From a virus (taxonomy: Duplodnaviria; Heunggongvirae; Uroviricota; Caudoviricetes), in the IMG/VR virus record IMGVR_UViG_2687453424_000001: DNA of 64,000 nt; one strand, 5' to 3'. The notes beneath the pieces were generated by a model. It had not been told where the DNA came from, did no database searches, and worked only from the letters and a program-made list of their open reading frames with translations. Shown piece by piece: positions 1 through 61,435 of this stretch. Position 1 is the first letter of the stretch, and each line of letters begins with the position of its first letter. Made by a program: the position numbers and the translations under genes.

Positions 1-3000
1 NNNNNNNNNNNNNNNNNNNNNNNNNNNNNNNNNNNNNNNNNNNNNNNNNNNNNNNNNNNNNNNNNNNNNNNNNNNNNNNNNNNNNNNNNNNNNNNNNNNN
101 NNNNNNNNNNNNNNNNNNNNNNNNNNNNNNNNNNNNNNNNNNNNNNNNNNNNNNNNNNNNNNNNNNNNNNNNNNNNNNNNNNNNNNNNNNNNNNNNNNNN
201 NNNNNNNNNNNNNNNNNNNNNNNNNNNNNNNNNNNNNNNNNNNNNNNNNNNNNNNNNNNNNNNNNNNNNNNNNNNNNNNNNNNNNNNNNNNNNNNNNNNN
301 NNNNNNNNNNNNNNNNNNNNNNNNNNNNNNNNNNNNNNNNNNNNNNNNNNNNNNNNNNNNNNNNNNNNNNNNNNNNNNNNNNNNNNNNNNNNNNNNNNNN
401 NNNNNNNNNNNNNNNNNNNNNNNNNNNNNNNNNNNNNNNNNNNNNNNNNNNNNNNNNNNNNNNNNNNNNNNNNNNNNNNNNNNNNNNNNNNNNNNNNNNN
501 NNNNNNNNNNNNNNNNNNNNNNNNNNNNNNNNNNNNNNNNNNNNNNNNNNNNNNNNNNNNNNNNNNNNNNNNNNNNNNNNNNNNNNNNNNNNNNNNNNNN
601 NNNNNNNNNNNNNNNNNNNNNNNNNNNNNNNNNNNNNNNNNNNNNNNNNNNNNNNNNNNNNNNNNNNNNNNNNNNNNNNNNNNNNNNNNNNNNNNNNNNN
701 NNNNNNNNNNNNNNNNNNNNNNNNNNNNNNNNNNNNNNNNNNNNNNNNNNNNNNNNNNNNNNNNNNNNNNNNNNNNNNNNNNNNNNNNNNNNNNNNNNNN
801 NNNNNNNNNNNNNNNNNNNNNNNNNNNNNNNNNNNNNNNNNNNNNNNNNNNNNNNNNNNNNNNNNNNNNNNNNNNNNNNNNNNNNNNNNNNNNNNNNNNN
901 NNNNNNNNNNNNNNNNNNNNNNNNNNNNNNNNNNNNNNNNNNNNNNNNNNNNNNNNNNNNNNNNNNNNNNNNNNNNNNNNNNNNNNNNNNNNNNNNNNNN
1001 NNNNNNNNNNNNNNNNNNNNNNNNNNNNNNNNNNNNNNNNNNNNNNNNNNNNNNNNNNNNNNNNNNNNNNNNNNNNNNNNNNNNNNNNNNNNNNNNNNNN
1101 NNNNNNNNNNNNNNNNNNNNNNNNNNNNNNNNNNNNNNNNNNNNNNNNNNNNNNNNNNNNNNNNNNNNNNNNNNNNNNNNNNNNNNNNNNNNNNNNNNNN
1201 NNNNNNNNNNNNNNNNNNNNNNNNNNNNNNNNNNNNNNNNNNNNNNNNNNNNNNNNNNNNNNNNNNNNNNNNNNNNNNNNNNNNNNNNNNNNNNNNNNNN
1301 NNNNNNNNNNNNNNNNNNNNNNNNNNNNNNNNNNNNNNNNNNNNNNNNNNNNNNNNNNNNNNNNNNNNNNNNNNNNNNNNNNNNNNNNNNNNNNNNNNNN
1401 NNNNNNNNNNNNNNNNNNNNNNNNNNNNNNNNNNNNNNNNNNNNNNNNNNNNNNNNNNNNNNNNNNNNNNNNNNNNNNNNNNNNNNNNNNNNNNNNNNNN
1501 NNNNNNNNNNNNNNNNNNNNNNNNNNNNNNNNNNNNNNNNNNNNNNNNNNNNNNNNNNNNNNNNNNNNNNNNNNNNNNNNNNNNNNNNNNNNNNNNNNNN
1601 NNNNNNNNNNNNNNNNNNNNNNNNNNNNNNNNNNNNNNNNNNNNNNNNNNNNNNNNNNNNNNNNNNNNNNNNNNNNNNNNNNNNNNNNNNNNNNNNNNNN
1701 NNNNNNNNNNNNNNNNNNNNNNNNNNNNNNNNNNNNNNNNNNNNNNNNNNNNNNNNNNNNNNNNNNNNNNNNNNNNNNNNNNNNNNNNNNNNNNNNNNNN
1801 NNNNNNNNNNNNNNNNNNNNNNNNNNNNNNNNNNNNNNNNNNNNNNNNNNNNNNNNNNNNNNNNNNNNNNNNNNNNNNNNNNNNNNNNNNNNNNNNNNNN
1901 NNNNNNNNNNNNNNNNNNNNNNNNNNNNNNNNNNNNNNNNNNNNNNNNNNNNNNNNNNNNNNNNNNNNNNNNNNNNNNNNNNNNNNNNNNNNNNNNNNNN
2001 NNNNNNNNNNNNNNNNNNNNNNNNNNNNNNNNNNNNNNNNNNNNNNNNNNNNNNNNNNNNNNNNNNNNNNNNNNNNNNNNNNNNNNNNNNNNNNNNNNNN
2101 NNNNNNNNNNNNNNNNNNNNNNNNNNNNNNNNNNNNNNNNNNNNNNNNNNNNNNNNNNNNNNNNNNNNNNNNNNNNNNNNNNNNNNNNNNNNNNNNNNNN
2201 NNNNNNNNNNNNNNNNNNNNNNNNNNNNNNNNNNNNNNNNNNNNNNNNNNNNNNNNNNNNNNNNNNNNNNNNNNNNNNNNNNNNNNNNNNNNNNNNNNNN
2301 NNNNNNNNNNNNNNNNNNNNNNNNNNNNNNNNNNNNNNNNNNNNNNNNNNNNNNNNNNNNNNNNNNNNNNNNNNNNNNNNNNNNNNNNNNNNNNNNNNNN
2401 NNNNNNNNNNNNNNNNNNNNNNNNNNNNNNNNNNNNNNNNNNNNNNNNNNNNNNNNNNNNNNNNNNNNNNNNNNNNNNNNNNNNNNNNNNNNNNNNNNNN
2501 NNNNNNNNNNNNNNNNNNNNNNNNNNNNNNNNNNNNNNNNNNNNNNNNNNNNNNNNNNNNNNNNNNNNNNNNNNNNNNNNNNNNNNNNNNNNNNNNNNNN
2601 NNNNNNNNNNNNNNNNNNNNNNNNNNNNNNNNNNNNNNNNNNNNNNNNNNNNNNNNNNNNNNNNNNNNNNNNNNNNNNNNNNNNNNNNNNNNNNNNNNNN
2701 NNNNNNNNNNNNNNNNNNNNNNNNNNNNNNNNNNNNNNNNNNNNNNNNNNNNNNNNNNNNNNNNNNNNNNNNNNNNNNNNNNNNNNNNNNNNNNNNNNNN
2801 NNNNNNNNNNNNNNNNNNNNNNNNNNNNNNNNNNNNNNNNNNNNNNNNNNNNNNNNNNNNNNNNNNNNNNNNNNNNNNNNNNNNNNNNNNNNNNNNNNNN
2901 NNNNNNNNNNNNNNNNNNNNNNNNNNNNNNNNNNNNNNNNNNNNNNNNNNNNNNNNNNNNNNNNNNNNNNNNNNNNNNNNNNNNNNNNNNNNNNNNNNNN

Positions 3001-3083
3001 NNNNNNNNNNNNNNNNNNNNNNNNNNNNNNNNNNNNNNNNNNNNNNNNNNNNNNNNNNNNNNNNNNNNNNNNNNNNNNNNNNN
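1..3083. other. assembly gap (N run)
   Basis: uninterrupted run of N. Confidence 0.99.
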
Positions 3084-3311
3084 CTTTAGTGACTTGACCT
3101 TATCTGGCAAGGTATAAGTTAAAACAACCTTCTGGTCTTGCTCAACAACATTAACTAACTGCAAGAAATTGGGATCAGCTTGCTTTAATTCGTTTAGCTC
3201 ACTTAATTGGTCGTAGCGAAATTGATTGTGATTGAGTTCGAGGATTAGCTTGTTCCCTTGTCGTTTGAACGTGCCAACCTCAATATTCAATAGCTGGTTT
3301 GCTTTACTCAT
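3084..3311 (-). CDS. hypothetical protein, 5' part only (76 codons, runs into the gap); downstream gene of the conjugation operon
   Basis: Minus-strand ATG at 3309-3311 overlaps the VirB4 stop (ATGAGTAA arrangement). Translation MSKANQLLNIEVGTFKRQGNKL... stays open to the contig edge at 3084. Low-GC bacterial codon usage. No family recognised. Confidence 0.5.
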
Positions 3312-5167
3312 TTAAAGTCCCTCCTTCTTCTTCGGTGGTGGTCAAGGCGTCAATTTCACTCGGTGTCAGGATCACACGCTTTTGATAATCCGGTTGTCCG
3401 GCGGTCTCACGGTTGTATTTTTCTTGGTAAGCTTCTGGGTCGATTAACCGCAATTCTTCTTCGGTTAGCTCCACCCGCATAAAAGCGCGTTGGCTACCAT
3501 AGATCATCAGGGCTTCACCTTGTCTACGGCGTTCTAGTAACTTCTTTTCCTTATCCGAGAACGTCATTCTTAACTTAGTAATGACATCATCAACACCTTT
3601 ACCATCAAGGCCAAAGAATACCTTGGTATAGGAGTTCCCAATAATGGCTTCACCAATGTTCTGCCCAGTATCTGTCGTTCCTTCAATCACATCTTGAATT
3701 TGTTGCGTTCCGGCAATCGCCCCGGCATTGTACTTTCTAAAGCGCTTATAGGCTTGATGGAAAAAGGTAGCGGCCGCTTTATGCAAGGTCAGAAAATGAA
3801 ATTCGTCAACAAACAATTTCTTGCGGCTATGCCGATCTTTCGTGATTTCGTCCCACAAATATTGAAAAGTATTCAGGTAGGCTGCTGATTGGACTTCCTG
3901 TTCACTTTGCAGCGGTTTTAAATCAAAGGAAATGATCTTGCCCTTTAAGTTGACGTTGGTGTGTCCGTCAAATAGGCTGTTAGAACCATGGGTATAACTG
4001 CCTAAGATGTAGTAGAAGTCTTTAACCCGACTGAATTTGTCAGCGTCCTTATCAGCTAGTTTTTCCAACTCGTCATAGACATTGGATAAGGTCGGCCACT
4101 GATCGTCTTTAATCTCTTTTAAGCGGCTATATTTCAAAACGCCACTGTTGACATAAGCCTGTTTAACAACATCATCAAGGATTGCCAATTCAACTTGGGT
4201 AATCCCGGTTTTGAGGACTTCAAAGAATCCCTTTAGTCGTTGAATTTTATCTTTGACTAGTAAATCAAGGTTTGTGACCGCTTCATCAGCGCTTAGGATT
4301 TCTTCGGAAAAGATTTGTAGCGGGTTAATTTTGTACTTCGCATTGGAAGTTAAATGCAAGACTGCCCCACCCAAGGCTTCAACAATCTTGGTATATTCAT
4401 TTTCTGGATCAATAATGTAGAGTTGATAGTCTTGAATGGCATAGCGTAGGATTTTTTGGATCATATAGGTGGTCTTGCCGACCCCACTGGTACCAATAAC
4501 CACCATGTTTTGGTTCAACGTTTTGTTGCGATCCAACATATCCACGGCAATTAAGCTGTTGGTGTCTTTGTTAACCCCTTCAATATCGCTTCTAGGCTTT
4601 AAGTCCAAAATCTCGGCGTCATCAAAAGGAAACATGCTGCTGGCAACTTCGGTATTACTTTCCTTATACGTATAATCGCCTAATAGATTTTCGTTGATTG
4701 GCATAGTAGACCAAAAACTTTGAAAAGTTGCTTTAACGGGCACTAAGGGCTTCATTTGTAGCTTAATCAGTGTATTTTTAACGTTGTCAGTTAAATCGTC
4801 TAGTTCCGCTAAACTGTTAGCCCGCAGATAAACCAGCATATGTTGGTACACAAATGTGGTAGAATTATCGAGGTATTTATCTAGTTGCATATTGGCCGAA
4901 TCAATATAATTTTGCAGAATTTTCTTTTTATACGGGTCGAACGTATTTAGCTTCTGCGCTTCCTTATTTTGGATCGTCTTTTTGTAATAGGTAATCATTG
5001 AATTGTTACTGGCGCTGTCGATATATTGCACAATATCGATAACGCCTTTTTTGCGCTTTAATTCTGATAGCCAGTTGCCGTGAACTCGCTTGGGATAGTC
5101 AGCAATCGCTAACACCCGGATAAAGTTCTCCCCCGACTGCACGTAGGTGGGGTACTGTTCCCAACTG
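3304..5167 (-). CDS. VirB4-family type IV secretion / conjugal transfer ATPase (TrsE/TraE/PrgJ-like), 5'-truncated
   Basis: Bacterial part of minus-strand ORF 3304..5364. Walker A GTSGVGKT is encoded at 4471-4494; Walker B-like LFVDEFHF at about 3795-3818; AGTQ motif follows. Stop TAA at 3304-3306. The N-terminal ~65 residues of the listed ORF are read from avian repeat DNA and are not part of the protein. Confidence 0.8.
3319..3324 (-). promoter_or_regulatory. Shine-Dalgarno-like GGAGGG, 7 nt upstream of the downstream-gene ATG
   Basis: Minus strand reads GGAGGGACTTTAAATG. Confidence 0.45.
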
Positions 5168-5172
5168 CAGGT
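5165..5172. other. chimeric junction between bacterial DNA and avian repeat DNA, at a CTGCAG (PstI) site
   Basis: Homology to the avian repeat copy at 45160-45365 runs up to about 5171. Beyond it the sequence is low-GC bacterial coding DNA. No N gap at the junction. Confidence 0.7.
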
Positions 5173-6130
5173 AGTCTCATGTCCCTTTGATGGCTGGAAC
5201 CCCAAGAGGTGTAGCATGGAGACAAGAAAGATGAGGAGGGTGGATGCCCCCTGCATGAAGGGGAAACTTGGATTTCTGGAGGTCCTCTGTGTGACAGGGA
5301 ACAGGTGGGGTTGGCTTTTGTGACTGAGGATCAGAGGAGTGGATAAGAGGGACATTGTGCTCACAGTTACAAACTACTTGCTCAGGGAGGGGAAACAGAA
5401 AAGGTCTTTTGTCAGCACCTGAGGAAGCCTCCAGGCTAATGAGCAGGTACCTTGCAGGTAATTGCCCTGGTGGTCCCTGGCCATGCAAAGCAACAGGGTG
5501 CAACAATGTGGAGGGTCTTGGCACAACCGGTTAACACAGGTGCAGGGCGGGCCAACAAGGGTGATGCTCCCCTGGAAAAGCTGCTCAGGATGTGATCATC
5601 AGTGTCAGCCTTGGCTGTCATGAGCATGCAATAGTGGGGACTCAGATGCTAAAGGGCATGAGGAAGGCCAGCAGCAGAGAACAGACTCTGGACTTACTTG
5701 GGGACAATTCCAGGAGTTTCCATGGGAAGCGGCTCTGATGGTGAAGGAGCATGAGCAAGTCTGCTAACGATCCCTGAGCCTGGAATACCTGGAGGGCTTC
5801 CAAGGTCCACCAGGGCTTTTGCCACCTTTCTGAATGCCGGTCAGGCTCCTGAGGGCTTTAGCACAGTTGCAGAGCACCAGCGCATTCTGGAATGGCCGGT
5901 GTTATTCCTCAGCCTTGCCAGAGCCTGCTGAGGCCTCTGCCTCCATCTAGAATGCTTGGGGAGATTCTGCAGGATTGGTGCAGACTGCCAGGGCCCTGCC
6001 ATGTTCTGCAATGTTGGGTGTCCTTCCAAGCGTGCTGGTGCAAGCACTTCCCTGGGCATTGCTGGAACCCTCCAGTTTCCCAGCAGGGCCTTCGCCGCCT
6101 TCCAGTAGCCTCGATGTGCTGCCGCGGTGC
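5173..6130. repeat. avian satellite-like repeat (family A), inverted relative to the copy at 44291-45400
   Basis: Translations of the two regions are near-identical on opposite strands (e.g. LEASSGADKRPFL.PLPEQVVCNCEHNVPL; GRTPNI.E.GRALAVCTNPAE.PQAF). Degenerate ~60 bp internal periodicity. Confidence 0.6.
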
Positions 6131-6139
6131 TGTGGTTTA

Positions 6140-6317
6140 AGTCCAGTCAGTAATTCAGAACCACGTAGTCGCTCGCTCACTCTCCCCCCTTCCTCCCCCC
6201 CACTCCCAGAGGGATGGGAAGGAGAATCGAAAAAATATAACTCGCACAGGTTGAGATAAGAACAGTCAAGTAACTAAGGAATAGCACAAACCACAGCCGC
6301 TACCACCAGTAATAATA
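6140..6317 (+). mobile_element. partial LTR (family L), 5' portion, truncated by CR1
   Basis: Same sequence pattern as the start of the LTR at 31296-31836 (gtggtttaa..cagtcag ... ctaccaccagtaataatag). Confidence 0.5.
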
Positions 6318-6376
6318 GTAGAATCATAGAATCGTAGAATCATAGAATAGTTAGGATGGGAAAGGACCTTAAGACC
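6318..6376 (-). mobile_element. CR1 LINE 3' terminus (ATTCTRTG-type octamer repeats), continuing into the gap
   Basis: Plus strand reads tagaatcatagaatcgtagaatcatagaat then ttaggatgggaaaggacc; minus-strand translation GLKVLSHPNYSMIL matches the CR1 3' end seen at 60430-60476. Confidence 0.7.
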
Positions 6377-8004: not shown

Positions 8005-9515
8005 GTCCTCGTGGCCCTCCTCTGGACTTGTTCCAACAGTTCCATGTCCTTTTTATGTTGAGGACACCAGAACTGCACACAATACCCAAGTGAGGTCTCA
8101 CGAGAGCAGAGTAGTGGGGCAGGATCACCTCCTTCGACCTGCTGCTCACGCTCATTTTGATGCAGCCCAGGATACGGTTGCTTTCTGGGCTGCGAGCACA
8201 CACTGCAGCTGGCTCATGTTCATTTTTCATCGACCAACACCCCCAAGTCTTTCTCCACAGGGCTGCTCTGGATCTCTGCTATCCCCAACCTGTAGCTGTG
8301 CCTGGGATTGCTCCGACCCAGGTGTAGGACCTTGCACTTGGCATGGTTAAACTTCATCAGGTTGGCATCAGCCCACCTCACAAGCGTGTCGAGGTCCCTC
8401 TGCATGGCATCCCTTCCCTCCGGCGTATCAACCGAACCACACAGCTTGGTGTCATCGGCAAACTTGCTGAGGGCGCACTCAATCCCACTGTCCATGTCAG
8501 CGACAAAGATGTTGAACAAGACCGATCCCAACACTGATCCCTGAGGAACACCACTTGTTACCGGTCTCCAGCTGGACATCGAGCCATTGACCACAACTCC
8601 TTGCGTGCGGCCATCCAGCCAGATCTTTATCCACCGAGTGGTCCACCCATCAAATTGATGTCTCTCCAATTAGAGACAAGGATGTCATGTCGGACAGTGT
8701 CGAACGCTTTGCACAAGTCCAGGTAGATGACCTCAGCTGCTCTACCCCTATCCATCAGTTCCATAGCCCCATCATAGAAGGCCACCAAATTGATCAGGCA
8801 GGATTTCCCCTTTGTGAAGCCATGCTGGCTGTCACCAACCACCTCCTTGTTTTTCATGTGCCTTAGCATGCCTTGCAGGAGAATCTGCTCCAAGAGTTTG
8901 CCAGGCACAGAGGTGAGACTGACTGCTCTGTAATTCCCCTGATCATCCATTTTCCCCTTCTTGAAAACAGGGGCTATATTTCCCTTTTCCCAGTCATCGG
9001 GAGCTTCACCTGACTGCCATGATCTTTCAAATATGATGGACTGTGTAAACTTCATTTGCCAGCTCCTTCAGGACCCGTAGATGGATTTCATTAGGTCCCA
9101 TGGACATGTGCACGTTCAGGTTCTTAAGATGGTCTTGAACCAGATCCTGTCTTACAGTGGGCCCAAGGTCTTCATTCTCACAGTCCCTGCTTCTGCCTTC
9201 CAAGACTTGGGTGATGTGGTCAGAGCCTTTGCCAGTGAAGACTGAGGCAAAGAAGTAATTCAGAACCTCAGCCTTCTCCAAATCCAGGGTAGCCAGTTCT
9301 CCTGCTAGTTTCTGGAGGGGGCCTATGTTGTCCCTAGTCTGTCTTTTATTTGCTACATACCTATAGAATCCCTTCCTGTTATCTTTCACATCCCTAGCCA
9401 AGTTTAATTCTAACTGGGCCTTAGCTTTCCTAACCTGGTCCATAGCTTCTCAGACAACATCCCTGTATTCTTCCCAGGCTGCCTTCCACCATCCCCTAAA
9501 GTTCAAATGCTTTTT
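8005..9515 (-). mobile_element. CR1 LINE ORF2 fragment (reverse transcriptase domain and C-terminal region), degenerate
   Basis: Minus-strand ORFs 9027..9443, 8627..9055 and 8220..8669 carry RT motifs ([29 protein letters not shown]; [13 protein letters not shown]; KCKVLHLG). 8005-8201 encodes [27 protein letters not shown]. Frameshifts between the pieces. Confidence 0.8.
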
Positions 9516-13706: not shown

Positions 13707-13707
13707 G

Positions 13708-13725
13708 TGGTGACCCCGACGTGAT
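13708..13725 (+). other. retroviral primer-binding site complementary to the 3' end of tRNA-Trp (alpharetrovirus type)
   Basis: Exact 18-mer TGGTGACCCCGACGTGAT immediately after the gap; the 5' LTR would lie in the gap. Confidence 0.6.
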
Positions 13726-14350
13726 AGCGATGGATGTGAGCCACGTGGTACAGGTACTGGAGGCCCTCGTGCAGCAAGCTGGGTTGCCGAAGGCGATAAA
13801 CTTGGAGCCAGCGGGCCACTGCATCCAATGGTTGCGAGGCCGGGGGGCGGTGGAGGCCCCTGTGGACGTATTAGATACCTCCCGATGGGGACGGATCTGC
13901 CAAGAGCTTTTGGAAGCAGTCTTGGCTGGGGAAAAGAAAGCAGGAGATCTAGGGGAGACGTGGGGTGCCATCAAGAAAGGTGTCTCCGGGAGAGGAGTTG
14001 CAGGAGCAGCTGCGGGACACGGAGGCGCTGCGGGTGGAGGAGCCGCGGGTGCAAGCGCGGGAGCTGTGGAGGAAAGTGCCCCGGGAGGTGCGGCCGGAGC
14101 CCCCGAGCCGCGCGGCCGAGCGGGCAGTGCCGGGGCTGCAGCATGACTGCCAGAAACCGCGGCAAAGGCAACAGCAAAAAACCGGGAAGCGGAGTCTTGT
14201 GAGCCCTGGTAACACTCCCCTTTGTGCGACAGGGCAGGGGACAGGGGGGTTCCCCACAACGAGCGACAGCAACCCTCAAAGCCTACCCTGGGGGAATCCT
14301 CCCTACTAACGACATTGTCTTTATCCTTGGCTACCAGGCTGGAGTGTTTA
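13726..14350 (+). mobile_element. putative ERV leader / 5' internal region; no recognisable gag motifs
   Basis: Position directly 3' of the primer-binding site; GC-rich; the ORFs here are Gly/Ala/Arg-rich low-complexity. Confidence 0.3.
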
Positions 14351-17180: not shown

Positions 17181-17244
17181 CCCATTGGCCATTGAGACTA
17201 CGATGGAATGTGCGCAAGTCCTTTTTCAGGCTTTGTCTGAGCGA

Positions 17245-17660
17245 GCTGCTGAAATTTGCCCAAATCACTGTAATAGTCATTCGCACATCCCTGGACTCCT
17301 GACTGAAGGTAGCAATAGTGCAGACCGTGTTGCACAAGGTCTGCCAGTTCCTGACTGTTGTGCTCCAGTTTTTATGCGCTATTTACATGTCACGGTTGAT
17401 ACCTGTAGCAGTGTCATTTTGGCTACAGCACAACGCAAGCAAGACGCCAAAGCAGCCATTTTGCATTGGCGCGAGGTCATGGCGATTTTGGGAGTCCCTA
17501 GCCAGATCAAGACCGACAATGGTCCAGCATATTCAAGTCAACTGGTGGCTTCATTTTTATGACAGTGGGGCATTGAGCATAAGACCGGTTGTCCTTATAA
17601 CAGCACTGGCCCAGCTATCGTCGAACGCGCGCACCGGACTCTGAAAGCTCGCCTCGTGTG
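17245..17660 (+). mobile_element. ERV pol remnant: RNase H C-terminus and integrase catalytic core, frameshifted
   Basis: ORF 17185..17562 has GNSADRVA (RNase H end), HVTVDTCSS and IKTDNGPAYSS (the two Asp motifs). The next frame at 17563-17640 gives [28 protein letters not shown] (the Glu motif). Confidence 0.65.
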
Positions 17661-23229: not shown

Positions 23230-23700
23230 ATCTCTCTGCGTCCCAGGAGCCCAGCCCAGCTCAGCAGCAGAGGCCCAGCCCAAGGTGGCTCTGCCTCTGC
23301 CCGGCTGGGCACCATCCAGGGCTCCCTGGTGCTCCAGGGGAACACCATGGGAAACAGCCTGAAGCAAGCACTGATGTTCCCTCCCTCAGCTGGCAGACAC
23401 ACTGCCTGCCTGCAGTGTCATTTCTCTGATGAGAGACAGAGTTTGGTCTGAACAACAAGATTTTGTAGAATCATGGAACCATTTAGGCTGGAAAAGAACC
23501 TTAAGATCATTGAGTCCAACATTAACCAAACACTGGCAAGTCAACACATTAAGCATGTCCCTTAGAACATGTCTATTAAATACCTCCAGGGTTGATGACA
23601 AAACCACTTCTGCAGGCAGCCTGTTTCTTGTCCCATTATTAGACACCCTCTCACAGTAGAATGGGGTTTTGCTGAGCATGGCTCTTCCTGTGACCTATTC
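23230..23700. repeat. segment A of an inverted-repeat pair (partner at 46400-46878); includes a CR1 3' end at 23466-23660 (minus orientation)
   Basis: ORF 23061..23402 (minus) and ORF 46706.. (plus) both start MCLPAEG.NISACFRLFPMVFPWS.REPW. CR1 end tagaatcatggaaccatttaggctggaaaagaacc at 23466. Confidence 0.6.
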
Positions 23701-44290: not shown

Positions 44291-45400
44291 TACCATTGGT
44301 CATTAATAAGGCCCTCCTCACGCTGCCAGCAGGGGCCTGCGCTCTGCCCCTGCAGGGCTGCTGCAGGGTTACCAGAACCCGCCAGCCCCATTGCCCCCTG
44401 CCGCAATCCCTGCCAGGCTTCTGCAGGCCTTGCCAGAGCCCTCCTGGGGTTTGCCACCTCCTGCAATGCCCGCTCGGCTCCCACTGCCTTTACCAGTGCT
44501 CCGGGCCCCTGCAACACCTTCAGGAGCCGCCAGGCATTGAGGAAGGTGGCAGGGTCTGGTGGGATCTGGCACAACCTGTGCAGGCTTGACGGCGTTCTGC
44601 AAGACCGCACGGACCCTGGGGTGCCCATGGAACCTGGGTGTGCGTTCTAGACAGAGGCTGCAGCCTTGGGGGCCTCCAGCAATGCCCGCAGCAGCACATC
44701 GGGGCTGCTGGAAGGGGGCAAAGGTCCTTGTGGGCTCTGGCAATGCCCATGGAAGTGCTTCCACCAGCACGCTTGGAAGGACTCCCAACATTCCAGAATG
44801 TGGCAGGGCCCTGGCAGTCTGCACCAACCCAGCAGAAGCTCCTCAAGCATTCCGGATGGAGGCAGAGGCCTCAGCGGGCTCTGGCAAGGCTGAGGAATAA
44901 CACCAGGCATTCCAGAATGCAGCAGGTGCTCTGGAACTGTGCTAAAGCCCTCAGGAGCCTGTCTGACATTGTGGAAGGTGGCAAAAGCCGTGATGGACCT
45001 TGGAAGCCCTCCGCATTGTTGCACCCTGTTGCTTTGCCTGGCCAGGGAATGCTGAACAGGGAATGCAGTTCCATAGCAACCTGCTCATTAACCTGGAGGC
45101 TTCCTCAGGTGCTGACAAAAGACCTTTTCTGTTGCCCCTCCCTGAGCAAGTAGTTTGTAACTGTGAGCACAATGTCCCTCTTACTGACTCCTCTAACCCT
45201 CAGTGACAAAAGCCAACCCAACCTGTTCCCTGTCACATTGAGGACCTCCAGAAATCCAAGCTTCCCCTTCATGCAGGGGGCATCAACCCTCCTCATCCTT
45301 CTTGTCTCCATGTTACACCTCCTGAGGTTCCAGCCATCAAAGACACATGAGATTATCTGTACTATTCTCCCCTTACAGCGCTGGATCTAAGGAGCAGCTA
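44291..45400. repeat. satellite-like repeat (family A) with ~60 bp degenerate tandem units
   Basis: cattccagaatg-type cores at 44789, 44848, 44908 and 44967 (spacing 59-60 bp); inverted copy at 5173-6130. Confidence 0.6.
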
Positions 45401-46399: not shown

Positions 46400-46878
46400 A
46401 ACTAACTATGGTGAATCCATTCCATCAGCAAGGCTAAAGGAGATCTCAGCCTGTCCTGTCCTGGCTGTCCAAATGATGGGACAAGAAACAGGCTGCCCAC
46501 AGAAGTGGTTCTGTCACCATCCCTGGCGGTCTTTAAAAGACGTGGAGATGTGGCACCTGTTGACATGGGTGGACTTGACAGTGTTTGGTTAGTGGTTAGA
46601 GTCAACCTTAAGGGTCTTTTTGAAATTTATGATTCTGGAATTCTGAGAAACTTTATTTACACCAAACTCCATCTCTCAGCAGAGCAATGACACTGCAGGC
46701 AGGCAGTGTGTCTGCCAGCTGAGGGAAGGAACATCAGTGCTTGCTTCAGGCTGTTTCCCATGGTGTTCCCCTGGAGCCCCAGGGAGCCCTGGAGGGAGCC
46801 CAGCGGGACAGAGGCAGAGCCACCTTGGGCTGGGCCTCTGCTGCTGAGCTGGGCATGGCTCCTGGGATGCAGACAGAT
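46400..46878. repeat. segment B of the inverted-repeat pair (partner 23230-23700); includes a CR1 3' end at about 46400-46650 (plus orientation)
   Basis: Reverse complement of 23230-23700; ends ..ttatgattctggaattctgag. Confidence 0.6.
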
Positions 46879-59924: not shown

Positions 59925-60476
59925 GAACATGAGCCAGCTGTGTGCAGTCGCTTGGGGTATTGTGTGCAGTTCTGGTGTCCTCAACATCAAAAGGACATGG
60001 AACTGTTGGAGCAAGTCCAGAGGAGGGCCACAAGGATGATCAGGGGACTGGAGCACCTCCCATATGAAGACAGGCTGAGGAAGTTGGGGCTGTTCAGCCT
60101 GGAGAAGAGAAGGCTGCGTGGAGACCTCATAGCAGCCTTCCAGTATCTAAAGGAGGCCTATTAATATGCTGGAGAGGGCCTCTTCACTAGGGACTGTAGT
60201 GATAGGACAAGGGGTAACATGCTCAAACATAAACAGAGGAAGTTGAGATTGGATATAAGGAAGAAGTTCTTGACTGTAAGGGTGGTGAGGCACTGGAAGA
60301 GGTTGCCCAGGGAAGTCGTGAATGCTCCATCCCTGGCAGTGTTCAAGGCCATTTTGGATAGAGCCTTGGGTGACATGGTTTAGTGGGAGGTGTCCCTGCC
60401 CATAGCAGGGGGGTTGGAACTAGATGGTCTTAAGGTCCTTTTCAACCCTAACTATTCTATGATTCTACAATTCTAA
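59925..60476 (+). mobile_element. CR1 LINE 3' portion (ORF2 C-terminus and 3' end with octamer repeats)
   Basis: ORF 59940..60164 [67 protein letters not shown]; then VVRHWKRLPREVVNAPSLAVFKA; terminal ctattctatgattctacaattcta. Confidence 0.8.
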
Positions 60477-60679: not shown

Positions 60680-60757
60680 GTTAGGGTTCTCTGCTGGGTT
60701 AGGGTTAGGGTTAGGGTTTTAGGGGGTTAGGGCGTTAGGGGGTTAGGGCGTTAGGGT
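60680..60757 (+). repeat. short degenerate telomere-like repeat (TTAGGG / TTAGGGGG / TTAGGGC units) abutting vector sequence
   Basis: ggttagggtt...gggttagggttagggttagggttttagggggttagggcgttaggg seen directly. Confidence 0.75.
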
Positions 60758-60763
60758 AAAAAG

Positions 60764-61106
60764 CTCGCTTTCAGCACCTGTCGTTTCCTTTCTTTTCAGA
60801 GGGTATTTTAAATAAAAACATTAAGTTATGACGAAGAAGAACGGAAACGCCTTAAACCGGAAAATTTTCATAAATAGCGAAAACCCGCGAGGTCGCCGCC
60901 CCGTAACCTGTCGGATCACCGGAAAGGACCCGTAAAGTGATAATGATTATCATCTACATATCACAACGTGCGTGGAGGCCATCAAACCACGTCAAATAAT
61001 CAATTATGACGCAGGTATCGTATTAATTGATCTGCATCAACTTAACGTAAAAACAACTTCAGACAATACAAATCAGCGACACTGAATACGGGGCAACCTC
61101 ATGTCC
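60764..61106 (-). other. phage lambda cos region (right end joined to left end across cosN), as carried in BAC/fosmid/cosmid vectors
   Basis: Reverse complement matches, from memory, the lambda left end (gggcggcgacctcgcgggttttcgctatttatgaaaattttccgg...) and right end (...cctttccggtgatccgacaggttacg); the cohesive-end junction lies at about 60890-60902. Confidence 0.85.
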
Positions 61107-61126
61107 GAGCTCGCGAGCTCGTCGAC
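61107..61126. other. synthetic polylinker (GAGCTC-TCGCGA-GCTC-GTCGAC: SacI/NruI/SacI/SalI sites)
   Basis: Restriction-site string between lambda-derived and F-derived sequence. Confidence 0.6.
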
Positions 61127-61435
61127 AGCGACACACTTGCATCGGATGCAGCCCGGTTAACGTGCCGGCACGGCCTGGGTAACCAGGTATTTTGTCCACA
61201 TAACCGTGCGCAAAATGTTGTGGATAAGCAGGACACAGCAGCAATCCACAGCAGGCATACAACCGCACACCGAGGTTACTCCGTTCTACAGGTTACGACG
61301 ACATGTCAATACTTGCCCTTGACAGGCATTGATGGAATCGTAGTCTCACGCTGATAGTCTGATCGACAATACAAGTGGGACCGTGGTCCCAGACCGATAA
61401 TCAGACCGACAACACGAGTGGGATCGTGGTCCCAG
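61127..61435. other. F-plasmid-derived vector backbone next to sopC, with the first sopC centromere repeats (about 61352-61435)
   Basis: tgggaccgtggtccca inverted-repeat cores in direct repeats (gaccgataatcagaccgacaacacgagtgggatcgtggtcccag), recalled as the sopC partition site of pBeloBAC11-type vectors. Confidence 0.75.

Follow-up and report, generated by a model that had tools for sequence, protein, structure and literature searches.

A Lactobacillaceae plasmid fragment joined to bird repeat DNA in a fragmented scaffold is very probably contamination

The bacterial segment at positions 3084-5167 of the DNA analysed here is very probably contaminant DNA from a conjugative plasmid of the Lactobacillaceae that has been chimerically joined to a bird repeat, and not an integration. 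The segment is nearly identical to bacterial sequence, its composition is foreign to the DNA beside it, and a second foreign piece is found in the same assembly. One point stands against plain contamination, namely that a single contig physically spans the bacterial and avian DNA, which unjoined contamination would not produce. In the course of events proposed here, DNA from the plasmid of a lactic acid bacterium (Lactobacillaceae) with a Gram-positive type IV secretion system (T4SS) of the pSK41/pIP501 type would have found its way into the sequence data of the bird and been fused with one of its interspersed repeats through a chimera formed in the assembly or the library. It could have reached the sample from gut or crop microbiota, from reagents or by carry-over between samples. 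That the junction is artefactual is our inference, as is its mode of origin. Contamination of eukaryotic assemblies by foreign DNA is frequent and has been documented (PMC7218494, PMC10246020); a literature search on Lactobacillus contamination in bird assemblies returned no specific report.

In the window, meaning the whole stretch of 64,000 nucleotides, ten short, repeat-rich contigs (0.5-4.7 kb) are scaffolded with N gaps between them. These gaps measure 1.6-5.6 kb, and there is in addition a single 20-N gap at 53512-53531. Some repeat families are common to different contigs: 8911-9484 resembles 52771-53347 (89%), and 23230-23640 resembles 46472-46878 (84%). The scaffold may be a repeat-driven, poorly supported build. 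The bacterial segment opens the first contig (3084-6376) and directly follows the N gap at 1-3083. An earlier note had described a low-GC bacterial segment at 3084-5167, truncated on both sides, and these limits hold: it is bounded by the scaffold gap (3083) on one side and by the junction (5167/5168) on the other. GC content is 41.5% in 3084-5167 against 53.3% in 5168-6376, and the observed/expected ratio (o/e) of CpG is 0.99 against 0.23. The remaining contigs are CpG-depleted overall, with o/e values of 0.15-0.63. A search of the window for further bacterial segments, by long open reading frames (ORFs) and CpG-undepleted stretches, found none besides a vector piece at 60758-61435, the GC-rich stretch at 13707-14206 aside. 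The latter opens a contig, has 64.6% GC and a CpG o/e of 0.78, and could represent a CpG island or an LTR.

Outside the foreign pieces, the window is avian. The earlier note had called the flank avian, and this agrees with the CpG depletion, with CR1 matches to bird proteins only and with a retroviral integrase fragment. The features concerned are the following.

5168..5515, no strand assigned: avian interspersed repeat flanking the junction; 88.7% identity over 353 nt to 45007-45359, in the opposite orientation; CpG o/e of about 0.2
8220-9055: broken, frameshifted reverse-transcriptase (RVT_1) ORFs of a decayed CR1 LINE
17185-17562: retroviral integrase core (rve)
59940-60383: C-terminus of a CR1-type ORF2, with thousands of protein matches

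Every named match among the best 120 for the CR1 ORF2 stretch is a bird (Mycteria, Grus, Amazona, Limosa, Gavia), and the integrase core probably comes from an endogenous retrovirus. The repeat at the junction has its only other copy in the window at 45007-45359, where the upstream sequence is unrelated. On comparison with this single copy, the junction may or may not truncate the repeat.

The conjugation fragment had been called the only prokaryotic system in the window. That claim fails, as a second foreign piece was noticed during CpG profiling of the window.

60758-61435: BAC/fosmid vector backbone; 100% identity over 678 nt; CpG o/e 1.4

Its first 348 nt (60758-61105) are 100% identical to the lambda cos region, and its F-plasmid sopC-type repeats match thousands of Escherichia plasmids. 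All 678 nt find a 100% match in CP036489.1, where they adjoin sopB, sopA, repE, a resolvase and catA1. Judged by its gene content, this cos-sop-repE-cat arrangement is that of a pBeloBAC11/pCC1FOS-type vector backbone. The vector piece is fused to repeats in the scaffold, which demonstrates that foreign DNA has escaped screening in this assembly and that some of its joins are chimeric. The point where avian and vector DNA meet is occupied precisely by a degenerate, irregular, telomere-like (TTAGGG)n stretch (60680-60757, gttagggcgttaggggg...), which looks like a low-complexity chimeric junction.

The join between bacterial and avian DNA was placed by aligning the window with the plasmid and with the second copy of the avian repeat.

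5167..5168, no strand assigned: bacterial/avian junction, abrupt in the three-way alignment

The plasmid match ends with ...CCCAACTG (5167) and the avian repeat begins with CAGGTAGTCTCATG (5168); the alignment shows no adaptor, filler or duplicated sequence at 5167/5168. The match to bacterial relatives stops at 5166/5167 in every relative examined. At this junction the ATPase gene described below is cut in the middle of its ORF, and the sole other boundary of the segment is the scaffold gap. Possible microhomology at the junction extends to at most 1-3 nt.

One sub-variant of the artefact reading differs solely in where the join arose. Contaminant and host fragments could have been ligated during library construction, through mate-pair circularisation or fosmid/BAC co-ligation, and then faithfully assembled. 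We regard this as possible while stopping short of calling it probable. From the vector backbone in the scaffold it is clear that data from large-insert clones went into the assembly, and the junction is blunt, with microhomology so short that there is no long shared k-mer to explain a mis-join in a de Bruijn graph. However, the avian DNA that truly precedes the junction may still have had a k-mer in common with the plasmid. The PstI hexamer CTGCAG, which spans the junction at 5165-5170, could also point to ligation, but it is weak post hoc evidence: a random junction has a chance of about 8% of being spanned by some palindromic hexamer, and the plasmid relatives, which read CTGAAT or CTGAAC at this place, are without the site. 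It was thus rejected as decisive evidence for a cloning join.

The bacterial segment carries parts of two genes of a conjugation system.

3084..5167, no strand assigned: bacterial segment from a Lactobacillaceae conjugative plasmid, by nucleotide identity to a metagenome contig and plasmids, GC and CpG o/e
3304..5166, minus strand: VirB4/TrsE-type conjugative transfer ATPase gene, 3' 92%, by translation, Pfam, NCBIfam, 4AG5 and pSK41 TrsE
4471..4494, minus strand: Walker A / P-loop GTSGVGKT, located as a motif and aligned with the 4AG5 P-loop (HMMER alignment)
3796..3816, minus strand: Walker B LFVDEFH, located as a motif and aligned with VLVVDEAW of 4AG5
3319..3324, minus strand: GGAGGG ribosome-binding site within the ATPase coding sequence, read from the sequence; identical in NZ_CP044235
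3084..3311, minus strand: first 76 codons of a TrsF-like / YukC-EssB-like conjugal transfer protein, by translation; cut by the scaffold gap at 3083

The ATPase frame (5166..3304) is uninterrupted for 620 codons plus a stop, the TAA at 3304-3306. Compared with the full-length homologue of 672 aa in metagenome contig Ga0214925_100860, it represents codons 53-672 of 672, the first 52 codons being absent. A program-listed ORF at 3304..5364 (686 aa) was rejected as a real gene, as 65 of its codons are chance read-through into avian DNA. The earlier reading of the frame as the C-terminal ~620 residues of a VirB4-family ATPase is well supported. Pfam matches comprise P-loop_TraG (61 bits against a cutoff of 25.8), DUF87, AAA_10 and CagE_TrbE_VirB, although the N-terminal CagE/TrbE/VirB4 domain (PF03135) is marginal at 21.3 bits against a cutoff of 21, over positions 60-200 of the 204 in the profile. 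4AG5_A, a solved structure of the C-terminal domain of VirB4, is matched with E = 7e-43 over 374 aligned residues. Both Walker motifs seen previously are in place and follow the patterns of the VirB4 family, GxxGxGK[T/S] for Walker A and, for Walker B, a hydrophobic run then D-E (LFVDE). Several VirB4-type NCBIfam models also match the frame, all below their equivalog cutoffs: the fragment scores 204 bits for the CD1110 family (cutoff 325) and 240 bits for the Mbov_0397 family (cutoff 590), and the corresponding values for the full-length homologue are 207 and 242 bits. Since these scores fall under the curated cutoffs, the names 'VirB4-like ATPase, CD1110 family' and 'Mbov_0397 family' were rejected; the ATPase is related to both families and a member of neither. 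Sequence comparison places it in the TrsE-type lineage.

The likeness to TrsE of Staphylococcus aureus pSK41, the VirB4-like ATPase of Gram-positive conjugation systems of MPF_FATA type and the equivalent of TraE of pIP501, runs end to end across the whole fragment (42% identity, 65% positives, E = 3e-175). The two are similar in length; the Walker A sequence GTSGVGK is followed by T in the window and by S in TrsE, and the D-E of Walker B is kept. The neighbours in the pSK41 trs region are also alike, with TrsD upstream of the ATPase and a TrsF-like gene, then a CHAP/lysozyme TrsG-like gene, downstream. In contrast, the window ATPase is without a ~16-residue insertion of TrsE and forms part of a separate, Lactobacillaceae-specific subfamily. 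Unlike pSK41, the window also lacks the first 52 ATPase codons and holds no other T4SS gene complete. The Thermoanaerobacter pseudethanolicus VirB4 domain (4AG5/4AG6) is a distant homologue, in which chain residues 17-385 align with fragment residues 201-574.

Turning to the downstream gene, its ATG lies 7 nt downstream of the GGAGGG ribosome-binding site and is overlapped by the ATPase stop, the TAA (3304-3306) being contained in ATGAGTAA (3311-3304). The overlap and the ribosome-binding site are thus as first described. Moreover, the overlap is conserved in 38 of the 39 relatives aligned and in Ga0214925_100860, in keeping with the claim of an operon layout typical of Gram-positive conjugative plasmids. 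At 9245-9262 of NZ_CP044235, the ATPase gene stops six codons earlier at a TAG, and the overlap with the TrsF-like gene is lost. The 76-aa stub itself yields a weak TIGR03926 EssB match only (E = 2.5e-4, far under the cutoff). Its full-length homologue (472 aa, NZ_CP044235) matches Pfam YukC with 39.5 bits against a cutoff of 27.4 and pSK41 TrsF with 23% identity (E = 9e-19), and it occupies the same position after the ATPase gene. In a bacterial context, by analogy, the ATPase (TrsE/TraE) would serve as the VirB4-like motor driving the mating channel. The gene that follows is coupled to it translationally by the stop/start overlap and would supply a TrsF-like membrane protein whose N-terminal domain is YukC/EssB-like. 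In the scaffold, neither gene does anything.

When the surroundings of the ATPase in the window were searched for a T4SS gene cluster (relaxase, coupling protein, VirB6-like protein, cell-wall hydrolase), just the start of the TrsF-like gene was found. The cluster is present in Ga0214925_100860 and in NZ_CP044235. The earlier view that the element cannot be assessed as complete therefore needs revision, as the full module can be read in this contig, 99.9% identical to the segment, and in many plasmids. A megablast search of 3084-5170 against plasmids gave 201 matching plasmids at E = 0, mostly from Lactiplantibacillus and other Lactobacillaceae, and 197 of these are typed as conjugative; DNA identity to these roughly 200 conjugative plasmids is 90-95%. 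The best is L. plantarum BK-021 plasmid unnamed2 (NZ_CP044235), with 95.0% identity over all 2084 nt. It carries, in order, a MobQ relaxase, CagC-like, TrsD, the ATPase, TrsF-like, a lysozyme/CHAP hydrolase, thioredoxin, a VirD4-like coupling protein, TrbL-like and TopB, and its conjugation genes are colinear with the pSK41 trs operon. The order agrees with a published account of the L. plantarum group, whose conjugation systems are given as MOBQ / T4CP2 / MPF_FATA with VirB4, trsC, trsD, trsF and trsJ (PMC6807380). Compared with Lactobacillaceae conjugative plasmids, the window has the same gene pair and ribosome-binding site but holds a 2.1-kb slice only. Both searches proposed at the outset, of HMMs for VirB4 families and of Firmicutes plasmids by BLASTN, thus gave the matches that had been predicted.

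An exact 41-mer containing two window-specific variants retrieved a single JGI contig, Ga0214925_100860 (9.7 kb). This metagenome contig is 99.90% identical to the segment, with 2 mismatches in 2084 nt; the two are private substitutions of the window, and one of them alters an amino acid. The contig runs colinearly past both ends of the fragment, with the 672-aa ATPase, the 472-aa TrsF-like, lysozyme/CHAP and VirD4-like genes, and more. In the relatives' loci compared before it was found, 450 of the 2057 28-mers of the fragment were absent.

The segment can be assigned to the family Lactobacillaceae, whereas the naming of a source genus was tried and rejected: the ATPase protein is 98-99% identical across many genera, and the DNA is a mosaic of its relatives' variants. 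In a protein scan of one genome per GTDB species, this level of identity is reached in more than 40 species and at least 15 Lactobacillaceae genera. At 4480-4507 there are 12 mismatches in 28 nt to NZ_CP044235, and the identical 28-mer occurs exactly in other relatives. On these alignments, the plasmid backbone is read as a promiscuous recombination mosaic across the Lactobacillaceae.

A source in an integrative conjugative element (ICE) or a chromosomal copy, in place of a plasmid, is unlikely. Two GTDB matches do come from large replicons, one being the chromosome of Furfurilactobacillus rossiae and the other an L. helveticus scaffold of 782 kb. However, at the DNA level the segment is closest to circular plasmids of 40-75 kb that are typed as conjugative and carry RepA and ParA, most of the genome matches are on short, plasmid-sized contigs, and the 2.1-kb fragment carries nothing by which to tell a plasmid from an ICE.

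The 39 relatives align with the segment gap-free at 90-95% DNA identity. Between 6 and 13 of the 620 residues differ, dN/dS is 0.02-0.05, and the segment has no indels or stop codons relative to them. Divergence that is nearly synonymous and free of indels and stops indicates that it accumulated entirely in bacteria, under purifying selection. The segment was searched for signs of residence in a host (CpG depletion, relaxed constraint, frameshifts and stops), and none was found. Together, the undepleted CpG, the purifying selection and the distance of two substitutions from a bacterial contig give no sign of time spent in a vertebrate germline. A real insertion of plasmid DNA from Lactobacillaceae into the bird interspersed repeat, of very recent date and either germline or somatic, is highly improbable: plasmid and avian repeat are continuous in one contig without adaptor or filler, and a recent event would likewise leave ORFs intact and CpG undepleted, but the segment is 99.9% identical to free bacterial sequence with its ORFs under purifying selection, there is one junction only, with a gap at the other side and without the hallmarks of integration, cloning-vector sequence is joined similarly in the same scaffold, and the prior for transfer from a bacterial plasmid to a bird germline is extremely low. 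Horizontal transfer into the bird, which the earlier note did not claim, is thus a reading that the evidence argues against.

Contamination with chimeric joining also has close parallels in the contaminated eukaryotic draft assemblies catalogued by Conterminator and NCBI FCS-GX, which are alike in having a short segment of bacterial composition, a fragmented, repeat-rich scaffold and vector alongside (PMC7218494, PMC10246020). Here, in contrast, the contaminant is not a separate contig and is fused to host sequence within one contig, and whole-contig classification screens would miss it because of this fusion. The gene family, the operon layout and the type of artefact are all already known. 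The segment says nothing new about bird or bacterial biology, and its conjugation genes are ordinary and well represented in public data. Its value lies in quality control only: contig 3084-6376 is very probably chimeric, and both 3084-5167 and 60758-61435 should be masked or removed. If left in, they could give rise to erroneous claims that a bird genome carries bacterial genes, and Lactobacillaceae plasmid sequence could be mislabelled as avian in databases.

Two plasmid records came to light through the vector piece. CP036489.1 is held in PLSDB as the 49.3-kb plasmid pMEM40-2 of Rahnella aquatilis; by its match and gene neighbours it is probably a fosmid clone or contaminant that has been mislabelled as a native plasmid. 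The same 678 nt are matched at 99.9% by NZ_CP104070.1 (PLSDB; Alicyclobacillus fastidiosus, 39.8 kb). A similar mislabelling may be suspected there from the 678-nt match alone, less strongly than for CP036489.1.
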